A stretch of DNA of 64,000 bases, from positions 5,420 through 69,419 of the forward strand of contig CAWJCP010000010.1 of the NCBI GenBank assembly GCA_963841445.1, written 5' to 3'. The notes beneath the pieces are model-generated. The model searched no databases. It was not told the origin of the DNA and saw nothing but the letters and a program-made list of their open reading frames with translations. The DNA is from an uncultured Solirubrobacterales bacterium (GTDB taxonomy: Bacteria; Actinomycetota; Thermoleophilia; Solirubrobacterales; 70-9). Below are positions 1-60,090 of the stretch, piece after piece; within the stretch, counting starts at the first letter, position 1, and each line of letters starts with the position of its first letter. A program made the position numbers and the translations under genes.

Positions 1-1170
1 CTCCAGGGCCTCGACGTTGGCGGCGAGCTCGGCCTCGATCGCATCGGCACCTTCGGTCATGCCCTTGGCCAGCGTCGCGACCTCGCCGACCTTCTGGGTC
101 GCGAAGGCCATCCAGGAGCGCAGCTCGGCGTCGAGGTCGGGCTCGGCGTCGAGGTCGACCGGCGTGTGCAGCAGTGAGCAGGAGGTCGAGACGACGAGCT
201 CGTCGGCGATGTCACCGAACTCGTGCAGCTCCTCGAGGCTTGCCTGCAGGTCGTTGATCCAGACGTTTCGCCCATCGACGATGCCGGCGAAGAGCGTCTT
301 GCCGTCGAGGGGGCCGACGTCGCGGGCGATGCCGGCGTTCTCGCGCCCGAGCACGAAGTCGAGGCCGATGCCGTCGACTGGGGTCTCGCGCAGCACCGCG
401 TAGGCGTCGCCGGCGTGGTCGAAGTAGGTCTTGACCAGCAGCCGGGTGCGCTCGTGGACCTTGGCGAGCTCCTGGTAGGCAAGGCGCAGCGCGTCGAGCT
501 CGCGCTCGGAGCGACTCATCACGAAGCAGGGCTCGTCGAGCTGCACCCATTCGGCGCCGTGCTCGGCGAGGCGCTCGATCACCTCTCCATAGACGCCGAG
601 CAGCGGCTCGATGAGGCTGAGGCGGTCAAAGCTCTCATCGGCCCCGTCGGCCGGCTTGGCGAGCAGCAGCAGCGAGACCGGGCCGATCAGGACCGGCACC
701 GTGGAGATGCCCAGCGCCTCCTCGGCCTCGACGTACTCGTCGAACGGCTTGCTGGCGGAGAGCGAGAAGCTCGTCTCCGGGCCGAGCTCGGGGACTATGT
801 AGTGGTAGTTGGTGTCGAACCACTTCACCATCTGCATCGCTGTCACGTCGACGCCATCCGCCTGGCGGCCACGGGCCATCGCGAAGTAGGTCTCGAGGTC
901 GACGTCGCCGCCGTCGTGGCCGTAACGGTCGGGGACCGCGCCGACCAGCGCGCAGGCGTCGAGGACCTGGTCGTAGAGGGAGAAGTCGTTGGACGGGATC
1001 AGGTCGATCCCGGCGTCCTGCATGAGCCTCCAGTTCGCGCGCCGGATCTCGCTGCCGGTCGCGGCCAGCTCCTCAGCTGAGGTCTCGCCGCGCCAGTGGC
1101 TCTCGGCGGCGAACTTGAGCTCGCGGTTGGGTCCGATGCGCGGGAAGCCCGCGATGTTGGAGAGGGCCAT
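1..1170 (-). CDS. metE: Cobalamin-independent methionine synthase, N-terminal ~390 aa. The 3' end lies beyond the left window edge.
   Basis: Absent from the ORF track because it has no stop in the window. The reverse complement from ATG at 1170-1168 reads MALSNIAGFPRIGPNRELKFAAESHWRGETSAEELAATGSEIRRANWRLMQDAGIDLIPSNDFSLYDQVLD...VKWFDTNYHYIVPEL, the canonical MetE N-terminal domain. The frame stays open to nt 1 (...KGMTEGADAIEAELAANVEALE). Confidence 0.85.
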   Translation of the reverse strand, partial: MALSNIAGFPRIGPNRELKFAAESHWRGETSAEELAATGSEIRRANWRLMQDAGIDLIPSNDFSLYDQVLDACALVGAVPDRYGHDGGDVDLETYFAMARGRQADGVDVTAMQMVKWFDTNYHYIVPELGPETSFSLSASKPFDEYVEAEEALGISTVPVLIGPVSLLLLAKPADGADESFDRLSLIEPLLGVYGEVIERLAEHGAEWVQLDEPCFVMSRSERELDALRLAYQELAKVHERTRLLVKTYFDHAGDAYAVLRETPVDGIGLDFVLGRENAGIARDVGPLDGKTLFAGIVDGRNVWINDLQASLEELHEFGDIADELVVSTSCSLLHTPVDLDAEPDLDAELRSWMAFATQKVGEVATLAKGMTEGADAIEAELAANVEALE

Positions 1171-16164: not shown

Positions 16165-16995
16165 TCAGCCGACCTCTACTTCGTCAGGCCAGCGATAGGC
16201 ACCGGGCCTGCGATTTGCCAGCGAGGGCAGCTGCTCGCGGATGCGGCGCTGCTCGGCGAGGTCGAGATCGGCGGCGACGAAGCACTCCCCCTGCGGCGCC
16301 AGCGCCAGCACCCTGCCCCAGGGGTCGACGATCGATGAGTGGCCGAAGGACTCGTAGTGGGGTGGCGCCTTGCCGACCTGGCCAGCCGCGATCACGAAGA
16401 CCTGGTTCTCGATCGCGCGGGCCCGCAGCAGCACCTCCCAGTGGTCGCGTCCGGTGGGCGCCGTGAAGGCCGATGGCACCGTGATCGCCTCGGCGCCGCG
16501 CAGGGCGAGGATCCGGTAGAGCTCCGGGAAGCGAAGGTCGTAGCAGACGGTCAGGCCCAGCTCGAGCTCTCCCAACGATGCGCTGACCGGCTCCTCACCG
16601 GCCTGCTCGGTGTCGGACTCGCGGTAGGTGACCCCCTCGACCTCGACGTCGAACATGTGGATCTTGCGGTAGACGGCGAGATCCTCGCCGGAGCGATCGA
16701 TCAGCACCGAGGTGTTGTAGAGCTGCTCCTGTCCCTCGACCCGCTCGGCGACGCTCCCGGCCAGCAGGTTAAGGCCGAGATCTCGCGCCCAACCGCGGGC
16801 GGCGGCGAGGCTCGGGCCGGCGAGCGGCTCGGCGCCGGCGCGCAGGGCGTCCGCGCCGCCGAGCAGCGTCCACTTCTCCGGCAGGCAGACGAGCTCGGCT
16901 CCGTCCGCGGCTGCTTCGCGGACCAGGCGCTCGGCGACCTCGAGATTGCGATCTTTGTCTTCCTGCGAATTGAGCTGGATCGCGGCGGCGCGCAT
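16165..16995 (-). CDS. Carbon-nitrogen hydrolase family (nitrilase/omega-amidase-like)
   Basis: MRAAAIQLNSQEDKDRNLEVAERLVREAAADGAELVCLPEKW...LGLTVCYDLRFPELY carries the Glu/Lys/Cys triad context. Confidence 0.85.
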   Translation of the reverse strand: MRAAAIQLNSQEDKDRNLEVAERLVREAAADGAELVCLPEKWTLLGGADALRAGAEPLAGPSLAAARGWARDLGLNLLAGSVAERVEGQEQLYNTSVLIDRSGEDLAVYRKIHMFDVEVEGVTYRESDTEQAGEEPVSASLGELELGLTVCYDLRFPELYRILALRGAEAITVPSAFTAPTGRDHWEVLLRARAIENQVFVIAAGQVGKAPPHYESFGHSSIVDPWGRVLALAPQGECFVAADLDLAEQRRIREQLPSLANRRPGAYRWPDEVEVG

Positions 16996-17017
16996 CTGAA
17001 TCCCCTCTCCGCCTGGC

Positions 17018-17031
17018 TGACTGACCAGTCA
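17018..17031. promoter_or_regulatory. Perfect palindrome TGACTG-AC-CAGTCA, 23 nt upstream of the nitrilase-TetR operon start; candidate TetR operator
   Basis: Read directly from the sequence. It lies in the 153-nt divergent intergenic region between 16995 (minus strand) and 17149 (plus strand). Confidence 0.35.
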
Positions 17032-17148
17032 ATCGGGCGGCCTTCAGTATCCCACAGGCCTCTCCGCCCCCGGCTCTCAGGCCGACTACGGCAACGTGCA
17101 GGCCATGGCCCGGCAAAGGCCGTACTCGACGGGAGCTAGGATCGGCTC

Positions 17149-45212: not shown

Positions 45213-45425
45213 ATGGCTGAAATTCCTGCCCACATCACCGGCAACGTCTGGAAGATCGAGGTCGCGGTCGGCGATCAGGTCTCCGACGGCGACACAGTGG
45301 TGATCCTCGAGTCGATGAAGATGGAGATCCCCGTCGAGGCCGAGGACGACGGCACCGTCAAGGAGATCCGCTGCGAGGAGGGTCAGTCGGTCAGCGAGGG
45401 AGAGGTCCTCGTCGTCCTCGAGTAG
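45213..45425 (+). CDS. Stand-alone 70-aa biotinyl/lipoyl-attachment domain protein (BCCP-like)
   Basis: MAEIPAHITGNVWKIEVAVGDQVSDGDTVVILESMKMEIPVEAEDDGTVKEIRCEEGQSVSEGEVLVVLE, with (A/S)MKM as the biotinylation motif. Confidence 0.8.
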   Translation: MAEIPAHITGNVWKIEVAVGDQVSDGDTVVILESMKMEIPVEAEDDGTVKEIRCEEGQSVSEGEVLVVLE

Positions 45426-45436
45426 ATGGCGGAAGA

Positions 45437-46243
45437 GTGAGCGAAGAGCTCGCCGCAGGAAAGCTGCTCGTCGACGAGCCGGCCGAGGCGGTGGCGCGGA
45501 TCCGGATCCGCAATCCGAAGAAGCGAAACGCGCTCGACCACGACATCCTCGACGCGCTTGCTGATCTGCTGCCGCGACTCGATCGAGGAATCGAGGTCCG
45601 CTGCGTCGTGATCAGCGGCGCCGAAGGGCACTTCTCGGCCGGCTACGACATCGGCTCGATCTCCGAGGAAAGCCTGGAGCGCGACGCCAGGGCCCTGGTC
45701 GCACATCCCTTCCATGCCGCGATCGAGGCGCTTGCCGACCATCCCTGGCCGACGGTGGCCGCGATCGACGGCGACTGCCTCGGCGGCGGCTTGGAGCTGG
45801 CGATCACCTGTGACCTGCGCATCTGCAGCGGCGAGGCTCGGCTCGGGATGCCACCGGTGAAGCTGGGGCTGATCTACGGCCACACCGGCCTGCGTCGCTT
45901 TCTCGACGCGATCGGGCTGGCGCGGACCAAGGAGCTGTTCCTGACCGGCAGGAACATCACCGCCCGGAGGGCGCGCGAGATCGGGCTGGTCCAGGACGTG
46001 GTCGGCGAGGACGACCTGGAGCGGGCCTCGGTCGAGTTGGCGGAGAAGATCGCCTCCAACGCGCCGCTCTCTCTGAAGGGCAACAAGCGGGCGATCGAGA
46101 CCCTCAACGCGCATCCCACCCTGCGGCCGCAGGAGGAGATCGATCTCGTCGAGCTGCGCGAGGCGTCGCTGGCGTCGGAGGACTTCCGCGAGGCCATCAC
46201 CGCCTTCGCGGAGAAGCGAAAGCCCCAGTGGCGCGGACGCTGA
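45437..46243 (+). CDS. Enoyl-CoA hydratase/isomerase family protein
   Basis: VARIRIRNPKKRNALDHDILDALADLL...VVISGAEGHFSAGYDI...DGDCLGGGLELAITCDL. Confidence 0.85.
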   Translation: MSEELAAGKLLVDEPAEAVARIRIRNPKKRNALDHDILDALADLLPRLDRGIEVRCVVISGAEGHFSAGYDIGSISEESLERDARALVAHPFHAAIEALADHPWPTVAAIDGDCLGGGLELAITCDLRICSGEARLGMPPVKLGLIYGHTGLRRFLDAIGLARTKELFLTGRNITARRAREIGLVQDVVGEDDLERASVELAEKIASNAPLSLKGNKRAIETLNAHPTLRPQEEIDLVELREASLASEDFREAITAFAEKRKPQWRGR

Positions 46244-46872
46244 AGGCCGCCCGCGCCGAGCTCGCCGCATCCGACCCGGCGATGGCAAGACTGATCGAGC
46301 GGCTCGGCGAGCGCAGCGCCGCCCAGCGGCGCCGCGGAATGCCGAAGCCGGACGCCTACGGAGCGCTGCTGCGCACGATCGTCGGCCAGCAGCTCTCCTC
46401 GAAGGCGGCGCGGACGATCTACGAGCGAGTCCTCGACCTGTACGGCGGCGTGACCCCGAGCCCGGAGCAGATCCTCGCCACCTCCGAGCAGGACCTGCGC
46501 GGAGCGGGCCTCTCGGGGCGCAAGGTCACCTACATCCGTGACCTCGCCGCCCACGTCAAGAGCGGTGAGCTGGAGCTCGACCGGCTCGAGGAGCTCTCCG
46601 ACGAGCAGGTGATCGAGGAGATCGTCGCGGTCCGCGGGCTCGGGAAATGGAGCGCGGAGATGTTCCTGATCTTCCACCTCGAGCGGCCCGACGTGATCTC
46701 CGGCGGAGACCTCGGAATCCGCAAGGCGATCCAGCTCGAGCTGGGCCTCGAGGAGATGCCGACCCCGCAGCAGGTCGAGGAGATCGGCGAGCGCTGGAGC
46801 CCGCACCGCAGCCTCGCCTCGATCTACCTCTGGGAGTCGCTGGCCGGCGACGTCACCGTCGGCGGGACCTAG
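46228..46872 (+). CDS. DNA-3-methyladenine glycosylase II (HhH-GPD, AlkA-like)
   Basis: ...IVGQQLSSKAARTIYERV...GLSGRKVTYIRDLA...VAVRGLGKWSAEMFLIFHLERPDVISGGDLGIRKA. Confidence 0.8.
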   Translation: MARTLKAARAELAASDPAMARLIERLGERSAAQRRRGMPKPDAYGALLRTIVGQQLSSKAARTIYERVLDLYGGVTPSPEQILATSEQDLRGAGLSGRKVTYIRDLAAHVKSGELELDRLEELSDEQVIEEIVAVRGLGKWSAEMFLIFHLERPDVISGGDLGIRKAIQLELGLEEMPTPQQVEEIGERWSPHRSLASIYLWESLAGDVTVGGT

Positions 46873-48124
46873 CCGGGCCCCCGAGATCGGCGCGCAGGTC
46901 GAGCACCCGCTGCGCGGAGCGCTCGAAGTCGACCCGAGGGAGTCGGCGCGCCCGCAGCGCCTTGCGCAGCGCCGCGCCAGCCTGCCCTGCGGCCCGATAG
47001 GAGCGAAACAGCAGCAGGTCGGTCCCGGCCCCCGCGGCCGCCCGCCCGACCTTCGCCGGCCCGCCGAAGGCCTGCGCGGCGGCCGACTGGAGCGCATCGG
47101 TGATCGACACCCCCGCAAAGCCGATCCGCCCGCGCAGCTCGCCGGTCGCGACCGCGCGCGAAAACGCGGCCGGTCGCTCCGAGAAGGCCGGATAGATCGC
47201 CGTGCTCAGCATCACCAGCCGCCCTCCCGTTTCCGCGAAGGCCGCGAACGGCGCCTCGTCAACGCCGCGCAGAGTCGGCTTCGACAGCTCGATCCGCTCG
47301 ACTCCGAAGTCGGTGTTGACCGCGGCGGCGCCGAGCCCCGGGAAGTGCTTGCCGGTCGCCGCGACACCGGCGGCGGCGAGCCCGTTGGCGAACGCAACCG
47401 CTGTCTCGGACACCCACGCGGCGCTGGCCCCGAAGCTGCGCCCCTCTTCGCTGATCGCGCCTCCACGGCGCCCGACATCGAGGACCGGCGCGAGATCGAC
47501 GTTGAAGCCGACCGCGGCGAGGCTGCGGCCTGTGAGCACACCCTGCTCGCGGCTGAAGGAGGGGCCACGGGCGCCCATTCGCGCCGCCGAGGCGGTTGGC
47601 GGACCGGAGAGGCGCTTCACTTCCCCGCCCTCCTGGTCGACCATCATCAGCAGCGGGTCGCGGAGGCCGGGCGGGCGGCGAATCGCCTCGAGCCCACGGA
47701 TCAGATGGCGGGCCGCGAACCAACCGTCGAAATTGTCGGCGAACAGCACCACGCCGGCCAGCTCGCCGCGGCGCACCATTCGCCGCAGCGCACGCGGTGG
47801 CTCCGTGCCGGAAAAGCCGGCGACCAGGCGCTGGCCCGCCAGCTGTCGAATAGTGAGGTCGCCGGCATTGGGACCGCTGGGCCTGCGATCCATGCCGTCG
47901 CCAAACGCGATGGTGATCCCGATGGCCCCCGCCACAGCGCCCGCCGCTATCGCAGCCCCAGCCCACCACCTGCGAATCGTCTTCGCCCTCACCGGCTGGC
48001 GAGTGTATTTGCGGGCCGCTACAGGCCTCGGACTCCCGGCGCTCCTGCTCTTCCGGAGTTGTGGGGCAGCGGCACCGAGGTGCAGGAAACGACCGTGGGG
48101 CCGGAGCAAGTGGAAAACGTGCAA
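46853..48124 (-). CDS. Glycoside hydrolase family 3 N-terminal-domain protein (beta-N-acetylhexosaminidase/NagZ-like), membrane-anchored or secreted
   Basis: ...LLMMVDQEGGEVKRLSG...GFNVDLAPVLDV...TGKHFPGLG... with an N-terminal anchor WWAGAAIAAGAVAGAIGITIAF. The exact start is uncertain. The longest ORF begins 17 nt downstream of the giant gene stop. Confidence 0.75.
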   Translation of the reverse strand: MHVFHLLRPHGRFLHLGAAAPQLRKSRSAGSPRPVAARKYTRQPVRAKTIRRWWAGAAIAAGAVAGAIGITIAFGDGMDRRPSGPNAGDLTIRQLAGQRLVAGFSGTEPPRALRRMVRRGELAGVVLFADNFDGWFAARHLIRGLEAIRRPPGLRDPLLMMVDQEGGEVKRLSGPPTASAARMGARGPSFSREQGVLTGRSLAAVGFNVDLAPVLDVGRRGGAISEEGRSFGASAAWVSETAVAFANGLAAAGVAATGKHFPGLGAAAVNTDFGVERIELSKPTLRGVDEAPFAAFAETGGRLVMLSTAIYPAFSERPAAFSRAVATGELRGRIGFAGVSITDALQSAAAQAFGGPAKVGRAAAGAGTDLLLFRSYRAAGQAGAALRKALRARRLPRVDFERSAQRVLDLRADLGGPARSRRR

Positions 48125-48141: not shown

Positions 48142-51100
48142 TCAGGGACCGTACGTCCAGACCCCGCCGGCGGCGCCGCGGTAGGCGCCCGGCGTCTGCT
48201 CTTGGGCCTGATAGACGACGGCGTTGGAGCTGTCGCGCAGGGTGAACTGCACCGTGTCGGGGCTACCGTCGAAGTAGGTCCATTCCAGCGTTCCCTGCTG
48301 ACCGTTACGGCCCCCCGGCGCTGCCTGACCGAAGCTGCCGGTCGCGGTGCCCGTCTGGGAGTCGAAGCCCAACGGTGAGCTCGGCGGCTGGTCGCTGCAG
48401 CTGGACTCGGTCACCGTGGACTTGCTCCAGATCACAGCGCCGCCCGTCGTAGCAACGACAATAGGTCGCGTCGACCCTGCAGCATCGCAGTCGTTTGTGG
48501 CCGAGAAGACGATCGCGGTGCCCTGCGCCGTGCTGACCGTCCCCCGCGCCGAGATCCTGCCCTGCGATTCCTCGAGATAGCTGAGGCGCGCAGAGCAGAT
48601 CGAGGTGTTGCCCGCCGCGTCGGCAGCGCTGGCGCGCAGGTAGGTGGTGCTGTTGTCGGCGACCTCGATCGTCAGGCCAGGCGAGGCAAAGTCGCTCTGG
48701 GTGCCGGTGGTGAGCAGATTGTCGGGAGTGCAGTCATCAACCGTGGTGGCCTTGTAGATGCGGATCGTGGTGTCGGCCGCAGCCTCGCCCTTGACCTTGG
48801 GGTGGTTGTTGTTGGCGGGGCTGTCGGGGTCGGTGCCGGTAATCTGCGGGGCAGGGGGCGGAGTCGAGTCCTCGGTGTAGCTGAAAGGCGCAGAACAGGG
48901 AGACACGGTGCCGTTCGCCTTGCTCACCTTTGCGGCCAGCGTCGTCGTGGCATCGTCCGGTACAGGGACCGCTATCCCACCGGTGAACTGCGCCATGGTG
49001 CCGGACGCTGCCGGGGGGCCCGAGCAGGTCGAGTTGGTGTAGATCTTGGCTTCAGCCGCGTCGCCGGCCGGGACCCAACCCTTGACCTTGGGGTGGTTGT
49101 CGTTGGCGGGGCTGTCAGGGTCGGTGCCGGTGATGTGAGGACGGAACGCGAACGTCCAGACCCCGCCGGCGGCGCCGCGGTAGGCGCCCGGCGTCTGCTC
49201 TTGGGCCTGATAGACGACGGCGTTGGAGCTGTCGCGCAGCGTGAACTGCACCGTGTCGGGGCTACCGTCGAAGTAGGTCCATTCCAGCGTTCCCTGCTGA
49301 CCGTTGCGGCCCCCCGGCGCTGCCTGACCGAAGCTGCCGGTCGCGGTGCCCGTCTGGGAGTCGAAGCCCAACGGCGAGCGGGGGGCGCTGCAGCTGGACT
49401 GGGTCACCGTGGATTTACTCCAGATCACAGCGCCGCCCGTCGTAGCGATGGCGTTGGGTCCCGTCGACTGTGCGGCATCGCAGTCGTTTCCGGCCGAGAA
49501 GGCGATCGCGGTGCCCTGCGCCGTGCTGACCGTCCCCCGCGCCGAGATCCTGCCCTGCAAATCGACGCAGTCAACGCTGACCGCGACCGTGGCCTGCGAG
49601 CCGCCGTTTAGCTTGTAGGTGAAGTCGTCGCTGGGCTCGCCGTCGTTGCAGTAGTCGGGGTCAGGCTTGTAGGTCAGCGACTGGTTGTCGTTGGCGATCT
49701 CGACCGTGCCGTGGTCGGGCTGGGTGGCGGAGGCGATCGCAAGCGGGCCGCCGTCGGCGTTTTGGTCGTTGGCGAGCACGTCGATCGGGCTCGCGTCGGA
49801 GTCCTCGGCGAGGCTTGCCTGGTCGTTGACGGCGCTGGGCGGGTCATCGACGCAGGCAACGCTGACCGCGACCGTGGCCTGCGAGCCGCCGTTTAGCTTG
49901 TAGGTGAAGTCGTCGCTGGGCTCGCCGTCGTTGCAGTAGTCGGGGTCAGGCTTGTAGGTCAGCGACTGGTTGTCGTTGGCGATCTCGACCGTGCCGTGGT
50001 CGGGCTGGGTGGCGGAGGCGATCGCAAGCGGGCCGCCGTCGGCGTTTTGGTCGTTGGCGAGCACGTCGATCGGGCTCGCGTCGGAGTCCTCGGCGAGGCT
50101 TGCCTGGTCGTTGACGGCGCTGGGCGGGTCATCGACGCAGGCAACGCTGACCGCGACCGTGGCCTGCGAGCCGCCGTTTAGCTTGTAGGTGAAGTCGTCG
50201 CTGGGCTCGCCGTCGTTGCAGTAGTCGGGGTCAGGCTTGTAGGTCAGCGACTGGTTGTCGTTGGCGATCTCGACCGTGCCGTGGTCGGGCTGGGTGGCGG
50301 AGGCGATCGCAAGCGGGCCGCCGTCGGCGTTTTGGTCGTTGGCGAGCACGTCGATCGGGCTCGCGTCGGAGTCCTCGGCGAGGCTTGCCTGGTCGTTGAC
50401 GGCGCTGGGCGGGTCATCGACGCAGGCAACGCTGACCGCGACCGTGGCCTGCGAGCCGCCGTTTAGCTTGTAGGTGAAGTCGTCGCTGGGCTCGCCGTCG
50501 TTGCAGTAGTCGGGGTCAGGCTTGTAGGTCAGCGACTGGTTGTCGTTGGCGATCTCGACCGTGCCGTGGTCGGGCTGGGTGGCGGAGGCGATCGCAAGCG
50601 GGCCGCCGTCGGCGTTTTGGTCGTTGGCGAGCACGTCGATCGGGCTCGCGTCGGAGTCCTCGGCGAGGCTTGCCTGGTCGTTGACGGCGCTGGGCGGGTC
50701 ATCGACGCAGGCAACGCTGACCGCGACCGTGGCCTGCGAGCCGCCGTTTAGCTTGTAGGTGAAGTCGTCGCTGGGCTCGCCGTCGTTGCAGTAGTCGGGG
50801 TCAGGCTTGTAGGTCAGCGACTGGTTGTCGTTGGCGATCTCGACCGTGCCGTGGTCGGGCTGGGTGGCGGAGGCGATCGCAAGCGGGCCGCCGTCGGCGT
50901 TTTGGTCGTTGGCGAGCACGTCGATCGGGCTCGCGTCGGAGTCCTCGGCGAGGCTTGCCTGGTCGTTGACGGCGCTGGGCGGGTCATCGACGCAGGCAAC
51001 GCTGACCGCGACCGTGGCCTGCGAGCCGCCGTTTAGCTTGTAGGTGAAGTCGTCGCTGGGCTCGCCGTCGTTGCAGTAGTCGGGGTCAGGCTTGTAGGTC

Positions 51101-54100
51101 AGCGACTGGTTGTCGTTGGCGATCTCGACCGTGCCGTGGTCGGGCTGGGTGGCGGAGGCGATCGCAAGCGGGCCGCCGTCGGCGTTTTGGTCGTTGGCGA
51201 GCACGTCGATCGGGCTCGCGTCGGAGTCCTCGGCGAGGCTTGCCTGGTCGTTGACGGCGCTGGGCGGGTCATCGACGCAGGCAACGCTGACCGCGACCGT
51301 GGCCTGCGAGCCGCCGTTTAGCTTGTAGGTGAAGTCGTCGCTGGGCTCGCCGTCGTTGCAGTAGTCGGGGTCAGGCTTGTAGGTCAGCGACTGGTTGTCG
51401 TTGGCGATCTCGACCGTGCCGTGGTCGGGCTGGGTGGCGGAGGCGATCGCAAGCGGGCCGCCGTCGGCGTTTTGGTCGTTGGCGAGCACGTCGATCGGGC
51501 TCGCGTCGGAGTCCTCGGCGAGGCTTGCCTGGTCGTTGACGGCGCTGGGCGGGTCATCGACGTGCGGCGAGTAGACGATCGACACCTCGCCCAGGCTCGG
51601 GGTCAGATCCGTGTTGGCGGAGCTCAGCTCGGCCCGGTACTGCAGATACCGGGAGCTGCCCGGGATGTCGCCGCCGGAGCTCCCGATCGGGGTGAAGTCG
51701 CTCCATGTCCCGTCCGGCGACGGCGTGTCGCCGGTGCGGACGCTGAGCGCCACGCCGGTCGCGCCCGGTGTCTCGGCGTTCCAGGTCAGCCCACCCCAGT
51801 CGGCGACCGCGCCGGCATCGAAGATGCGCGACTCGAAGCTGCCCGAGCCCGGATAGGGGCTCATCCGCAGCCAGTCGACCGCGACTTCTGGACCGCCAGC
51901 GTTGAAGTCGCTGGCCGCCGGATGCAGCTCCTGGCCGAAGGTCCCGTTACGGGCGTCGACCTGAGTGCCGTCGATGAAATACGTCACTCCCGTGGCGGTC
52001 CAATCGATCCGGTAGCGGTGCGGCGCGCCGAGGAAGGAGCCCGGGATCGGGATCGAGCTCTCACCGCCGCCGAAGTTCGTGCGGGCATAGAGCTGGTTGG
52101 TCGTATTGGAGGTGCTGAACATCGCCCAGAGGCCGACGTTGTTGAAGTCGACTCCGAAACCGACGTGCTGGAAGCTCGTGGCGCCGAAAGTAGCCACGAA
52201 CTCGAGCGAGTGCCCCGGTCCGAACGTCGCGTCGGGCGCGGCGAAGGCGCCATCGACGTGCAAGCTGCCGCCGGAGACCGCCGCCGCGCCGCCGGGGCCG
52301 CCTCCGTCACCCGCCCAGTCGTGGCTCGACCAGCCGCTCGGCAACTCGCTGCCCGAGAACTCCTCGCCCACTGCAGGCTTAAGAATCACTTCGCCGTTGG
52401 CGGTCTCAGAGACGTAGGTGCCGGCGCCGGGGGTGCCGGCGCCGAAGTCGGCCACGGTGGTATCGGTGAAGCCGAGAACCTGCGCCGCGGTGGTGAAGGA
52501 CCAGCTGTCGTCGGCGCCGAGCGGGTTGCCGTTGGAGTCCCCGACCGCTCCGTCGACGGTCACGTCGTAAGACGTGCTCGGATCGAGATCGGCATCGGGA
52601 TCGAGCGTTGCCGTGTTGCCTGCGTAGCTGACGCTTGCCGCCACATCGCTACCGGCCCCCTGCTTGCGCAGGCGGACGCTGGAGCCGTCGATCGTCGCGG
52701 GATCCATCGGCTCGCTGAACTGGACCTCGACATCTGTGTCAACGGCAACGTCGGTGGCGTCGGGGGCCGGGCTTCGCTGGGTAATCGTCGGTGGCTCTGT
52801 ATCGGCGCCCTGGTTGTAGCCGATCGTGACCTCGGTCAGGGCCGGGGTGCTGCCCGCATCGCTCGAGCTCAGCTGGGCCCGGTACTGGACATAGCGAGAG
52901 TTGCCGGGGATGTCGTCGCCCGAGCTCGCGATCGGGGCAAAGCTGCTCCAGCTCGCGTCGGGGGTGGGGGTGTTGCCGGTGCGAACGCTCATTGCCACGC
53001 CGGCGCCGCTGGGGATCTCTGCGTTCCAGCTGAGCGCACCCCAGTCGGCGCTCTGGCCGGCGTCAAAGACGCGCGACTCGAAGCTGCCAGCGGCTGGGTA
53101 GGGGCTCACCCGCATCCAATCGAGCGAGAGCTCGGGGCCACCGGCCGTGAAGTCGCTGGCCGCCGCGTTGAGGCTGGGGCCAAAGCTCGCGCTGTGGGTG
53201 GCCACCAGGCCGCCGTCGATGAAGTAGCGGACCTCGCTCGCATCCCATTCGATCCGGTAGCGGTGCGCGGAGCCGACGTACTGTCCCGGTGCCCCGACCG
53301 GCGTGTCCTGGATGGCGCCATCGTTGGTGCTGGCATAAAGCTGATTTGTGCTTTGGCGGGTGCTGAACATCGCCCAGACGCTGTTGAAGTTGTCGGTGAA
53401 GGCAACGTGCTGGAAGGTGGAGGCGCCGAAAGTCGCCGCGAACTCCAGCGAGCGGCCTGCTCCGTAGGTCGCCGTCGTGCCGGCGTAGGCGCCATCTACG
53501 TGCAGGGCGCCGCCCGAGACGGTGGCGCTGCCCCCGGATCCTCCGCCCTGGGACTCCCAGGTGTCGCTCGCCCAGCCGATCGGCAACGAGGGGCCCGCGA
53601 ACTCCGCACCTTCGGTCGGTTGCAGGGTCACCTCGCCGTCTTCGGTCTCAGAGATGTAGGTGTCGGGACCGGTGCTGCCGGCGCCGAAGTCGGCGACGGT
53701 GGTGTCGGTGAAGCTGGAGCTGGGCGTTGTGAAGGTCCTCGGGATCTGGGGCGGCGCCGGATCGGTGGACGCGTTGCCGACGGCGTCAGCCGACCGCACG
53801 CGGAAGTGGTAAGTCGTGTTCGGCTGCAGGCCGGTCAGCTGGATGCTGTGCGAGACCGTCAGTGCTGCGTCGGTCGCACTCGAGCCGAGCGCGTCGGGAT
53901 CGGTTCCGTAGTCGACCTGCGAGTCCGATGCCTCGTTGGTGTCCCAGCTGATCGTGGCGTTGCCGTCCCCTGCCGCGCTGGCCACGACGTTGGAGATCGC
54001 GGGCGGCGAGTCGTCAACGGCATAGCTCGCCTCGTAGCTGCCCGGCAGAGCGTCGAAGAACGCGTACTCAACCCCCTTGATGGTCTGCGTCGCGGTGGTG

Positions 54101-58875: not shown

Positions 58876-60090
58876 GTGAGACCTATGAAGGCAGCACAAA
58901 AGTCCAGTCCAGGCAGCAGCGAGGCTGCCGAGAAGTCCGGCCTCTCGCCCGGCGAGATGATGCGCCTGCTGCAGTTCGGCATCATCGTCACGGACTCGAG
59001 CGGGACGGTGATCGAGGTCAGCGAGACCGCGAGACAACTCGTCGCCGAGAATGGTGCGGAATTGCCCGAGGGCACGACTTGCTGCTCGCTTTTCGGGTGC
59101 CTGCAGCGCGAGCCGATCGCCCGGCATTGCATCACCGAGCTTGCTGCTCGCTCCAAGGGCCCGCTGCCTGAGGTTCGCGTCGACCTCGCGCCGGAACGGC
59201 ATTCGGGCGCCGTCTGGATCACGGCGGCACCAGTGAGAAGGGATGGTTCGCAGGTCGTCATGCATCTGCGTCCAGCCGCAGTCGGCGACCGGCGTCGTCG
59301 CACTCGCCCGCACTGGATGGTCGCGCCACGTCTTCGAATCCACGCCCTCGGCCGGACCCGGGTCGAGGCCGAGGAGATCGCGATCGAGGGTGAGTGGCTC
59401 CTGAAGCGGCCGGGCCAGCTGCTCAAGTACCTGGTCTGCCAGCGAGGTCGGCCCGCGCACGTCGATGAGATCGTCGAGGCCCTCTGGCCGGAGGCGGGCC
59501 TCAACGGCCGAAACACAGTCCGCCACTACATCCATTCGCTGCGCGAGAGGGTGGAGCCGAACCGCTCGCCCCACACCCCCTCCTCGTTCATCACATCGGT
59601 CGGAAGCACCTACATGCTGGACCCTCGAGTGAGCATCGACGTCGATGAGTTCGAGGATCTTGTTGCTCTTGGCCTCGGAGAGTCCGCCCGGAGCGAGAAC
59701 GGCGGGCTGTCCGCAGTCGAGTGCCTGGAGCGGGCCCTGGACCTTTACAGAGGGGACCTGATCTCGGAAGAGCCGTTCGCCGAGTGGGCCTTTGCGGAGC
59801 GAGAGATGATGCGCAGCCTCGCCGGCAAGGCACTCAACCGCCTGGTCGACCACAATCTTGAGCGCGACGATCTGGCTGCTGCCACAACCCATCTCGAGCG
59901 CTCGACCGAGCTGCGTCCGCTCGATGCCGACGTCCAGATGCAGCTGATCGTCGTCTATCTTCGGCGGGGACGTCATACCGATGCCCAGCGCCGCTTCGCC
60001 GCTTTCCGACAGCGGCTGCTCGACGAATTCGGACAGGAGCCGGGCTTCACCCTCGCCGACCTCGCGTCCGGCCGCGAGGCGGGCGTCTAG
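58876..60090 (+). CDS. SARP/AfsR-DnrI-type regulator: N-terminal Cys-rich PAS-like domain + OmpR-type winged helix + BTAD
   Basis: PAS-like LLQFGIIVTDSSGTVIEVSETARQLV...; wHTH LRIHALGRTRVEAEEIAIEGEWLLKRPGQLLKYLVCQRGRPAHVDEIVEALWPE...VRHYIHSLRERVEP; BTAD VDEFEDLV...ALDLYRGDLISEEPFAEWAFAEREMMRSL...LRPLDADVQMQLIVVYLRRGRHTDAQRRFAAFRQRLLDEFGQEPG. The start is GTG 58876 or ATG 58885. Confidence 0.8.
   Translation: MRPMKAAQKSSPGSSEAAEKSGLSPGEMMRLLQFGIIVTDSSGTVIEVSETARQLVAENGAELPEGTTCCSLFGCLQREPIARHCITELAARSKGPLPEVRVDLAPERHSGAVWITAAPVRRDGSQVVMHLRPAAVGDRRRRTRPHWMVAPRLRIHALGRTRVEAEEIAIEGEWLLKRPGQLLKYLVCQRGRPAHVDEIVEALWPEAGLNGRNTVRHYIHSLRERVEPNRSPHTPSSFITSVGSTYMLDPRVSIDVDEFEDLVALGLGESARSENGGLSAVECLERALDLYRGDLISEEPFAEWAFAEREMMRSLAGKALNRLVDHNLERDDLAAATTHLERSTELRPLDADVQMQLIVVYLRRGRHTDAQRRFAAFRQRLLDEFGQEPGFTLADLASGREAGV

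Follow-up and report, generated by a model that had tools for sequence, protein, structure and literature searches.

A Periscope-like array of near-identical tandem-95/cadherin-like domains in a giant gene of an uncultured soil Solirubrobacterales bacterium

Introduction

Identical in-frame repeats that change in number by recombination are a familiar phenomenon. They are known from the Periscope Proteins (Whelan et al. 2021, PMC8201768; review PMC9704523), examples of which are SasG, Rib/alpha-C, Sgo_0707, CdrA and Esp. The operational screen for these proteins selects repeats of more than 50 residues with at least 80% identity (PMC8201768). In this study, we analysed a stretch of 64,000 nucleotides (nt) from an uncultured Solirubrobacterales bacterium (contig CAWJCP010000010.1 of assembly GCA_963841445.1), hereafter the window. 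A giant gene in the window contains an array of seven units of 95 amino acids (aa), which are 100% identical but for one residue and lie within the limits of that screen. The array is Periscope-like and is composed of a tandem-95/cadherin-like domain.

The giant gene resembles those of the Periscope Proteins in several respects. Its product is a single-chain, probably secreted protein with tandem folded domains that are near-identical in DNA, and each repeat unit consists of complete codons. Among close relatives, the repeat number differs between near-identical strains, and only long reads resolve the arrays properly. A search of the main texts of PMC8201768 and PMC9704523 found no mention of the repeated domain (tandem-95/Cadherin_4/Big_9). 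The locus also departs from the described cases. The host is an uncultured soil actinobacterium and not a culture-collection pathogen, the non-repeat part is very large, enzyme-like and multi-domain instead of a small adhesive head, and different orthologues of the giant gene amplify different domain types. Moreover, we identified neither a wall nor a membrane tether; the protein has a probable signal peptide but no LPXTG-like motif, hydrophobic C-terminus or anchor domain.

Comparable domains also form the extenders of RTX adhesins. Region II of the Marinomonas adhesin MpIBP consists of about 120 near-identical repeats of 104 aa, which are stiffened by Ca2+. The extenders of MpIBP and of Vibrio FrhA have a fold similar to that of the window unit (Foldseek template modeling score, TM, about 0.6) and, like the window array, are long runs of nearly identical acidic beta-sandwich domains of about 100 residues. 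However, the sequence identity between the window unit and the MpIBP and FrhA domains is just about 10-20%. RTX adhesins are type-I-secreted proteins of Gram-negative bacteria that have RTX repeats at the C-terminus and a module for retention in the outer membrane, whereas the giant protein gave no Pfam or NCBIfam match to RTX nonapeptide repeats, a type I secretion system signal or an N-terminal retention module and has a probable N-terminal signal peptide instead.

With the proteins of the tandem-95, Cadherin_4, Big_9 and Cadherin_5 families, the array shares a unit of about 95 aa, a VLAND..D.DG core and an all-beta sandwich. Typical tandem-95 members (P0014, P0026 and P0064) have diverged copies with 30-45% identity to the window unit, unlike the seven identical copies found here. 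An initial annotation of the window, made from the letters alone, had compared the array with Rib/alpha-C and Bap-type surface proteins, in which identical in-frame repeats are gained or lost and only the protein length is altered. This comparison is apt as an analogy of logic. It does not extend to homology, since the array has no Pfam match to a Rib domain at threshold (RibLong reached 24 bits against a cutoff of 27, and only in the C-terminal region) and the protein has no LPXTG motif.

A near-perfect in-frame array

Tandem Repeats Finder reported one array in the window, at 49561-51562, with a period of 285, 7.0 copies, 99% matches, no indels and a score of 3997. Base-by-base comparison resolved it into seven full units of 285 nt and 7 nt of an eighth. 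The units are listed below in gene orientation.

51562-51278, minus strand: array unit 1
51277-50993, minus strand: array unit 2
50992-50708, minus strand: array unit 3
50707-50423, minus strand: array unit 4
50422-50138, minus strand: array unit 5
50137-49853, minus strand: array unit 6
49852-49568, minus strand: array unit 7
49561-49567, minus strand: partial eighth unit of 7 nt, CGTCGAT in gene orientation (from the junction sequences)

The sole mismatch among the units is at 49571, where the plus strand has T for G (GCC to GAC, Ala to Asp). Read along the gene, it falls in the seventh and final unit, at a distance of 11 nt from the array's 3' edge, and turns ...VSVACV into ...VSVDCV. Both the composition of the array and this single substitution had been described in the initial annotation, and both were borne out. 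The edges are abrupt: periodicity is at background level right outside the array, and no degenerate or decayed unit copies were found in its flanks. No second long tandem repeat was found anywhere in the 64-kb window. The G+C content of the window is 69%, and a 2-kb self-match at an offset of 285 is beyond chance.

The array is in frame in the minus-strand open reading frame (ORF) at 48142-58758 and spans aa 2399-3066 of 3,538. G+C by codon position is 0.63/0.54/0.88 in this frame; it is therefore the coding frame, and the plus-strand "shadow" ORFs are by-products of high G+C. Each unit comprises 95 codons and has, as had been noticed at first, two Cys and a VLANDxDxDG-type motif, which reads VLANDQNADGG. 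Other duplications within the giant gene are older. The two LamG-like blocks share 75% DNA and 63% aa identity, and the C-terminal modules A and A' share 94% DNA identity, in line with the earlier remark that these duplications had diverged.

The 7 nt of the partial eighth unit (CGTCGAT, 49567-49561) are identical to the opening 7 nt of every unit (51556-51562). The chance expectation of this match is about 1.6e-4 from base composition, a figure that is raised by the Val-Asp constraint. The heptamer could be a microhomology footprint of the founding duplication, an idea that is no more than suggestive, because both sites encode Val-Asp.

Family and fold of the repeat unit

The NCBIfam model NF012211 ("tandem-95 repeat") matched the whole protein above threshold in seven stretches (154.6 bits, cutoff 90); one array unit alone scored 30.1 bits. 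Three Pfam families also matched in seven stretches each: Cadherin_4 (PF17803; 265.3 bits, cutoff 25.1), Big_9 (PF17963; 238 bits, cutoff 23.6) and Cadherin_5 (PF17892; 127.6 bits, cutoff 26.5). The resemblance to "tandem-95" or bacterial cadherin-like repeats, which the initial annotation had pointed out, was thus confirmed by four models at threshold.

An alignment of 24 units from the giant protein and its homologues (A1) was used to build an AlphaFold2 model of the unit. The model shows seven beta strands with a predicted local distance difference test score (pLDDT) of 95.8, so that, with regard to the rod of Periscope Proteins, a folded beta-sandwich is predicted with high confidence for a single unit. 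Foldseek searches against the PDB returned Ig/cadherin-like sandwiches. The probability was 1.0 for FrhA, MpIBP, MfFcnA and phage collar Ig-like domains (TM 0.55-0.75), and 0.75-1.0 for protocadherins. The matched regions are Agrobacterium phage collar proteins, the domains adjoining the peptide-binding modules of the RTX adhesins FrhA and MpIBP, and the C-terminal domains of the fucoidanase MfFcnA. A profile search with A1 found the PDB entries 36gk ("RTX protein", 1.4e-10) and 6dms (fucoidanase, 8e-9), while a sequence search of two units against the PDB gave noise alone (ABC-transporter matches, E>0.09). According to the model, the unit is an Ig/cadherin-like beta-sandwich.

The unit is strongly acidic, with 18 Asp and Glu residues against 2 Lys and Arg. 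With the VLANDQNADGG motif and this 18:2 ratio, calcium binding by the unit is plausible, and so is a disulfide between its two Cys. These two conserved residues (DYC ... xCV) are a trait of a Solirubrobacterales subtype and are missing from more distant units.

Arrays in orthologous genes

The nearest relatives of the giant protein are 67-75% identical to it and come overwhelmingly from Solirubrobacterales metagenome-assembled genomes (MAGs) of the Microflora Danica project, which was based on Nanopore sequencing, metaFlye assembly and a single Medaka polish (PMC12313526). We extracted the homologous domain from 80 related loci. At the position that the array has in the window, directly behind the last LamG-like block, it is present in one copy in eight orthologues and in 4, 4, 5, 8, 8, 10 and 14 copies in others, compared with 7 in the window. 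Base-perfect units are also found within L008 (14 x 291 nt) and L019 (8 x 291 nt), where differences are limited to the outermost few nt of the array. Between genomes, the units share 73-84% DNA identity and the host proteins 65-76% aa identity. With units that are identical inside an array but share no more than 84% identity across genomes, the arrays are specific to lineages, and they are either young or subject to continual homogenisation. The initial annotation had proposed recent amplification or ongoing homogenisation for the window array, and the range of 1-14 copies among orthologues agrees with this.

The array-bearing orthologues are about equally distant from one another (65-76% aa identity), and single-copy orthologues are interspersed among them. 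With such a distribution, independent recent expansions from one ancestral domain appear more parsimonious, and concerted evolution of an older array would be the less parsimonious alternative.

Other domain types form arrays with 99-100% identity in other orthologues. These include 12 units of 273 nt (Big_13-like), 9 of 213 nt and 10 of 282 nt, about 4 each of 294 and 312 nt, and nine perfect Big_2-like units in P0028. The arrays in L001 and L002 are diverged, with 75-98% unit identity. Amplification has thus involved different domain types in different orthologues, and at least five have been seen: tandem-95, Big_13-like and Big_2-like units, a repeat of 71 aa and a He_PIG-like one of 94 aa.

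Copy-number change among near-identical strains

Two loci from different samples, L001 and L002, carry 10 and 8 tandem-95 copies, respectively, and are separated by indels of 285 and 287 bp. Over about 22 kb, the two are otherwise 99.98% identical, with just 3 substitutions and two 1-nt gaps. A further set comprises three conspecific loci, L081 (ERZ25039500 contig_26072), L082 (ERZ25039549 contig_14117) and L009 (16784-20068). Their proteins P0137, P0140 and P0138, from three soil samples, contain a 273-nt (91-aa) Big_13-like unit in 9, 4 and 12 exact copies, respectively, and the tandem-95 domain only once. L081 and L082 differ by one substitution in the 9.9 kb upstream of the array. In clusters that are free of arrays, protein length stays constant, with nine members at 3,789 aa, four at 2,010 aa and six at 2,287-2,288 aa.

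Relatives of the window gene thus show unit-sized copy-number polymorphism. Whole-unit changes were roughly 10^4-fold more frequent than point substitutions per site, an estimate from very small counts in three comparisons. The initial annotation had expected gain and loss to preserve the frame and to change only the length; in the relatives, this is seen in the two-unit difference between L001 and L002 and in the 9, 4 and 12 copies of the conspecific trio.

Recovery of arrays in long-read and short-read assemblies

Arrays (at least 97% matches, about three or more copies) were present in 9 of the 43 Nanopore-derived loci and in none of the 34 remaining loci, for the most part from short reads (Fisher p = 0.004, a contrast confounded by taxonomy). 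Among the latter, 14 of the 34 contigs end within 2 kb of the expected start of the repeat region, and one cluster contains several short-read entries labelled "partial", whose contigs measure 2.7-7.6 kb. The caveat raised at first, that short reads may misjudge the copy number, was well placed, as near-perfect arrays are missing from all of the non-long-read assemblies. Because the arrays occur in long-read MAGs and not in short-read ones, short-read catalogues systematically truncate or break these genes.

Proposed mechanism and alternative explanations

The array is likely to be genuine and to represent one folded domain that was amplified in frame, either recently or under active homogenisation. 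A single ancestral domain would first have been duplicated, possibly at the CGTCGAT microhomology. Once two identical 285-bp copies were present, unequal homologous recombination or replication slippage could add or remove whole units, and every such gain or loss would keep the frame and the domains intact because the unit is 95 codons long. The outcome would be a rod or spacer segment whose length quickly drifts or is selected, according to the logic of the Periscope Proteins. The array might set how far the C-terminal module lies from the N-terminal part, which is probably carbohydrate-directed. Our hypothesis of a spacer in an extracellular carbohydrate-directed protein is suggested by the LamG/GH16-like blocks, by the adjacent GH3 gene and by MfFcnA, FrhA and MpIBP, in which this fold adjoins a catalytic or binding module. 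The recombination mechanism, calcium-dependent rigidity, length rather than binding valency as the selected property, and projection from the cell surface are inferred.

Several observations weigh against this interpretation. The 287-bp indel of L001 (16346-16632) is not a whole unit; it breaks the frame and splits the gene into ORFs of 3,512 aa and 440 aa, and may reflect real inactivation (pseudogenisation) or an error of the Nanopore assembly within the array. In P0003 and P0126, the tandem-95 count is 4 in each despite 5 aa substitutions between them. For the window organism itself, no second genome was found: its public protein record, P0001, is alone in its 90% cluster. Exact-pattern scans of Joint Genome Institute metagenome contigs with a unit-specific 30-mer and 23-mer gave 0 matches, and the window genome was not among the GTDB representatives matched. 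The relatives are Nanopore assemblies made with metaFlye and polished once with Medaka, so counts for arrays near the read length may be imprecise, and polishing might blur small differences between units. Finally, no LPXTG-like motif, C-terminal hydrophobic segment, transmembrane segment or Pfam anchor domain was found in the giant protein. The "stalk" of the initial annotation, projecting from the cell, is therefore unsupported, and the protein may have an anchor of a kind that is not recognised.

The tidy consensus of seven copies might have been produced by the assembler or polisher from an array whose true copy number differs or whose units are not quite identical. The close relatives come from the Nanopore pipeline described above, the frame-breaking indel in L001 hints at errors within such arrays, and many short-read contigs with genes of this family break off at the expected start of the repeat region. 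However, a short-read assembler would be expected to collapse a perfect 285-bp repeat rather than to write it seven times. Arrays of the same anatomy recur in many independent MAGs, and the same pipeline also yields the diverged arrays of L001 and L002, so homogenisation is not its default behaviour. Moreover, the array is in frame, and each unit is exactly one structural domain. We regard an artefact of this sort as rather improbable, and there is very little chance that the array is entirely absent in reality. Less probable still is an array of stable length, in which gene conversion or selection preserves the identity of the seven domains because that number is needed, for example for multivalent ligand or carbohydrate binding or for a fixed reach. 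P0003 and P0126 behave as such an array would, cadherin-like domains accompany binding or enzymatic modules in structurally related proteins, and multivalency would be a plausible benefit. Against fixed length stand the 1 to 14 copies at the array position among orthologues and the whole-unit differences in two of the three near-identical array-bearing sets. Selection at the protein level also fails to account for a perfect DNA identity that includes synonymous sites.

It is also conceivable, if unlikely, that the repeats are the ligand-binding part of the protein, acting in adhesion or on polysaccharide, and that amplification tunes avidity and not reach. That no anchor was found for a stalk would suit this idea, and so would the adjoining GH3 glycosidase gene and the LamG/GH16-like blocks. 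Some arrayed domains do have ligand functions (PMC8201768). On the other hand, domains of this fold flank or extend a binding or catalytic module in FrhA, MpIBP and MfFcnA, as judged from the Foldseek matches and general knowledge, and no binding site is evident from the unit sequence. A role in avidity would be compatible with an in-frame amplification as proposed here and does not exclude a spacer.

The young or actively homogenised amplification that we favour would extend the logic of Periscope Proteins to abundant uncultured soil Actinomycetota and to a giant, probably carbohydrate-directed secreted protein, in which different domain types are independently amplified in different orthologues. 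Array length in multiples of 285 bp provides a concrete population-genetic marker for soil metagenomes. More speculatively, and with the odds clearly against it, the DMFA2_C/DUF4082 giants of uncultured soil Solirubrobacterales and Chloroflexia might constitute a large unrecognised class of secreted proteins of hyper-variable length that is essentially invisible in short-read metagenomes, with a different Ig-like type amplified independently in each lineage. If so, extracellular reach in soil would appear to be under strong diversifying selection, exerted by phage, predators or the geometry of substrates, or else a mechanism specific to the locus would promote recombination.

Architecture of the giant protein

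The giant protein is probably secreted and carbohydrate-directed. Its features are listed from the N-terminus to the C-terminus.

48142..58758, minus strand: giant gene of 3,538 codons, counted from the GTG that lies farthest upstream (ORF list and G+C by codon position)
58420..58512, minus strand: probable signal peptide, aa 83-113, VLGCRWRRRQLLLATLIAAAAIGAFPGRADA, cleaved before APCDPP (read from the sequence)
57052..58236, minus strand: DMFA2_C (N,N-dimethylformamidase beta-subunit-like, C-terminal), aa 175-569 (PF20254, E 2.6e-103)
56149..56574, minus strand: DUF4082, aa 729-870 (PF13313, E 1.6e-54)
aa ~885-990, minus strand: first Big_5 (PF13205)
~54000-55760, minus strand: stretch of about 580 aa with no family match, aa ~1000-1580
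53773..54000, minus strand: fn3/purple-acid-phosphatase-N-like domain, aa 1587-1662 (PF16656, PF00041)
52819..53691, minus strand: first LamG-like/GH16-like block, aa ~1690-1980 (internal duplicate of the second block)
52489..52803, minus strand: second Big_5 Ig-like domain, aa 1986-2090 (PF13205, E 3.5e-51, 2 stretches)
51574..52476, minus strand: second LamG-like/GH16-like block, aa ~2095-2395, abutting the array
49561..51562, minus strand: array of seven 95-aa tandem-95/Cadherin_4/Big_9 domains, aa 2399-3066
49144..49560, minus strand: C-terminal module A, aa 3067-3205, directly after the array (94% DNA identity to A')
48565..49143, minus strand: two Ig-like domains of the "ITGTDPDSPAN(D/N)NHPKVKG" type, aa 3206-3398 (from the sequence)
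48145..48564, minus strand: C-terminal module A', aa 3399-3538, ending in GGVWTYGP at the C-terminus

P0001, encoded on an NCBI/ENA contig of 73,608 bp, is 100% identical to the giant protein but is called 97 codons shorter. Its start is a Leu codon (58467), which leaves a leader of 16 residues without a positively charged N-region. From the GTG 15 codons upstream (58512), a conventional signal peptide is obtained, with RWRRRQ, a hydrophobic core and ADA/A at the cleavage site; the public start of P0001 is therefore probably mis-called. The signal peptide (RWRRRQLLLATLIAAAAIGAFPGRADA, followed by APCDPP) is the only hydrophobic segment of the giant protein. Homologues have an N-terminal hydrophobic leader that ends just ahead of the same A-P-C-D motif, which supports the cleavage site.

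The stretch of about 580 aa (aa ~1000-1580) gave no Pfam or NCBIfam match. It is highly conserved, with the motifs PGGPILV, MTGDDHGNGGT, THCIAWSDW and DTNYYYWP, and looks like an uncharacterised catalytic core common to hundreds of homologues. The sole Pfam support for the LamG/GH16-like blocks is one weak Glyco_hydro_16 match with its best stretch in the second block. The motif of the ITGTDPDSPAN(D/N)NHPKVKG type is also present in P0003, P0004 and P0137.

Module A/A' is an all-beta module of about 140 aa that is present twice. Just five relatives of module A were found in the databases, all of them short ORFs ending in a conserved GGVWTxGP. In Pfam, the module gave only sub-threshold matches to MliC and RibLong, the latter within module A, and it had no match in the PDB by sequence. 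The AlphaFold2 model of A' (pLDDT 69) is all-beta, and a Foldseek search with it gave no match at E<0.07. The module was considered as a candidate anchor, but neither Pfam, PDB sequences nor the model with Foldseek pointed to a recognisable family or fold.

The C-terminal tails of the family are highly variable, and the Pfam lists of homologues include dockerin, type IX secretion system tail, sortase-associated and WD40-like beta-propeller regions. The closest array-bearing relative, P0122 (locus L002), has a separate short-period array in its tail (16609-17034; periods of 27, 54 and 81 nt) of a glycine-rich "NGGxGNDTL" type, and this tail is missing from the window protein.

Genomic neighbourhood

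Two genes flank the giant gene.

46853..48124, minus strand: GH3-family glycosidase gene (Pfam Glyco_hydro_3, E 2.1e-49)
58876..60090, plus strand: SARP-type regulator (Trans_reg_C and BTAD by Pfam), divergent, upstream of the giant gene

The GH3 gene lies 18 bp past the stop of the giant gene on the same strand, and co-transcription is therefore possible. The context of GH3 and SARP genes is not kept at L001, L002 or L003. Rfam and tRNA scans of the window gave no match. Apparent frameshifted GH3 pieces at 45383-47118, which would signal Nanopore indel errors, were rejected after G+C frame analysis, which resolved the region into two plus-strand genes. By the G+C frame plot, these lie at 45437-46243 and 46228-46872, and the long minus-strand ORFs that overlap them are spurious.

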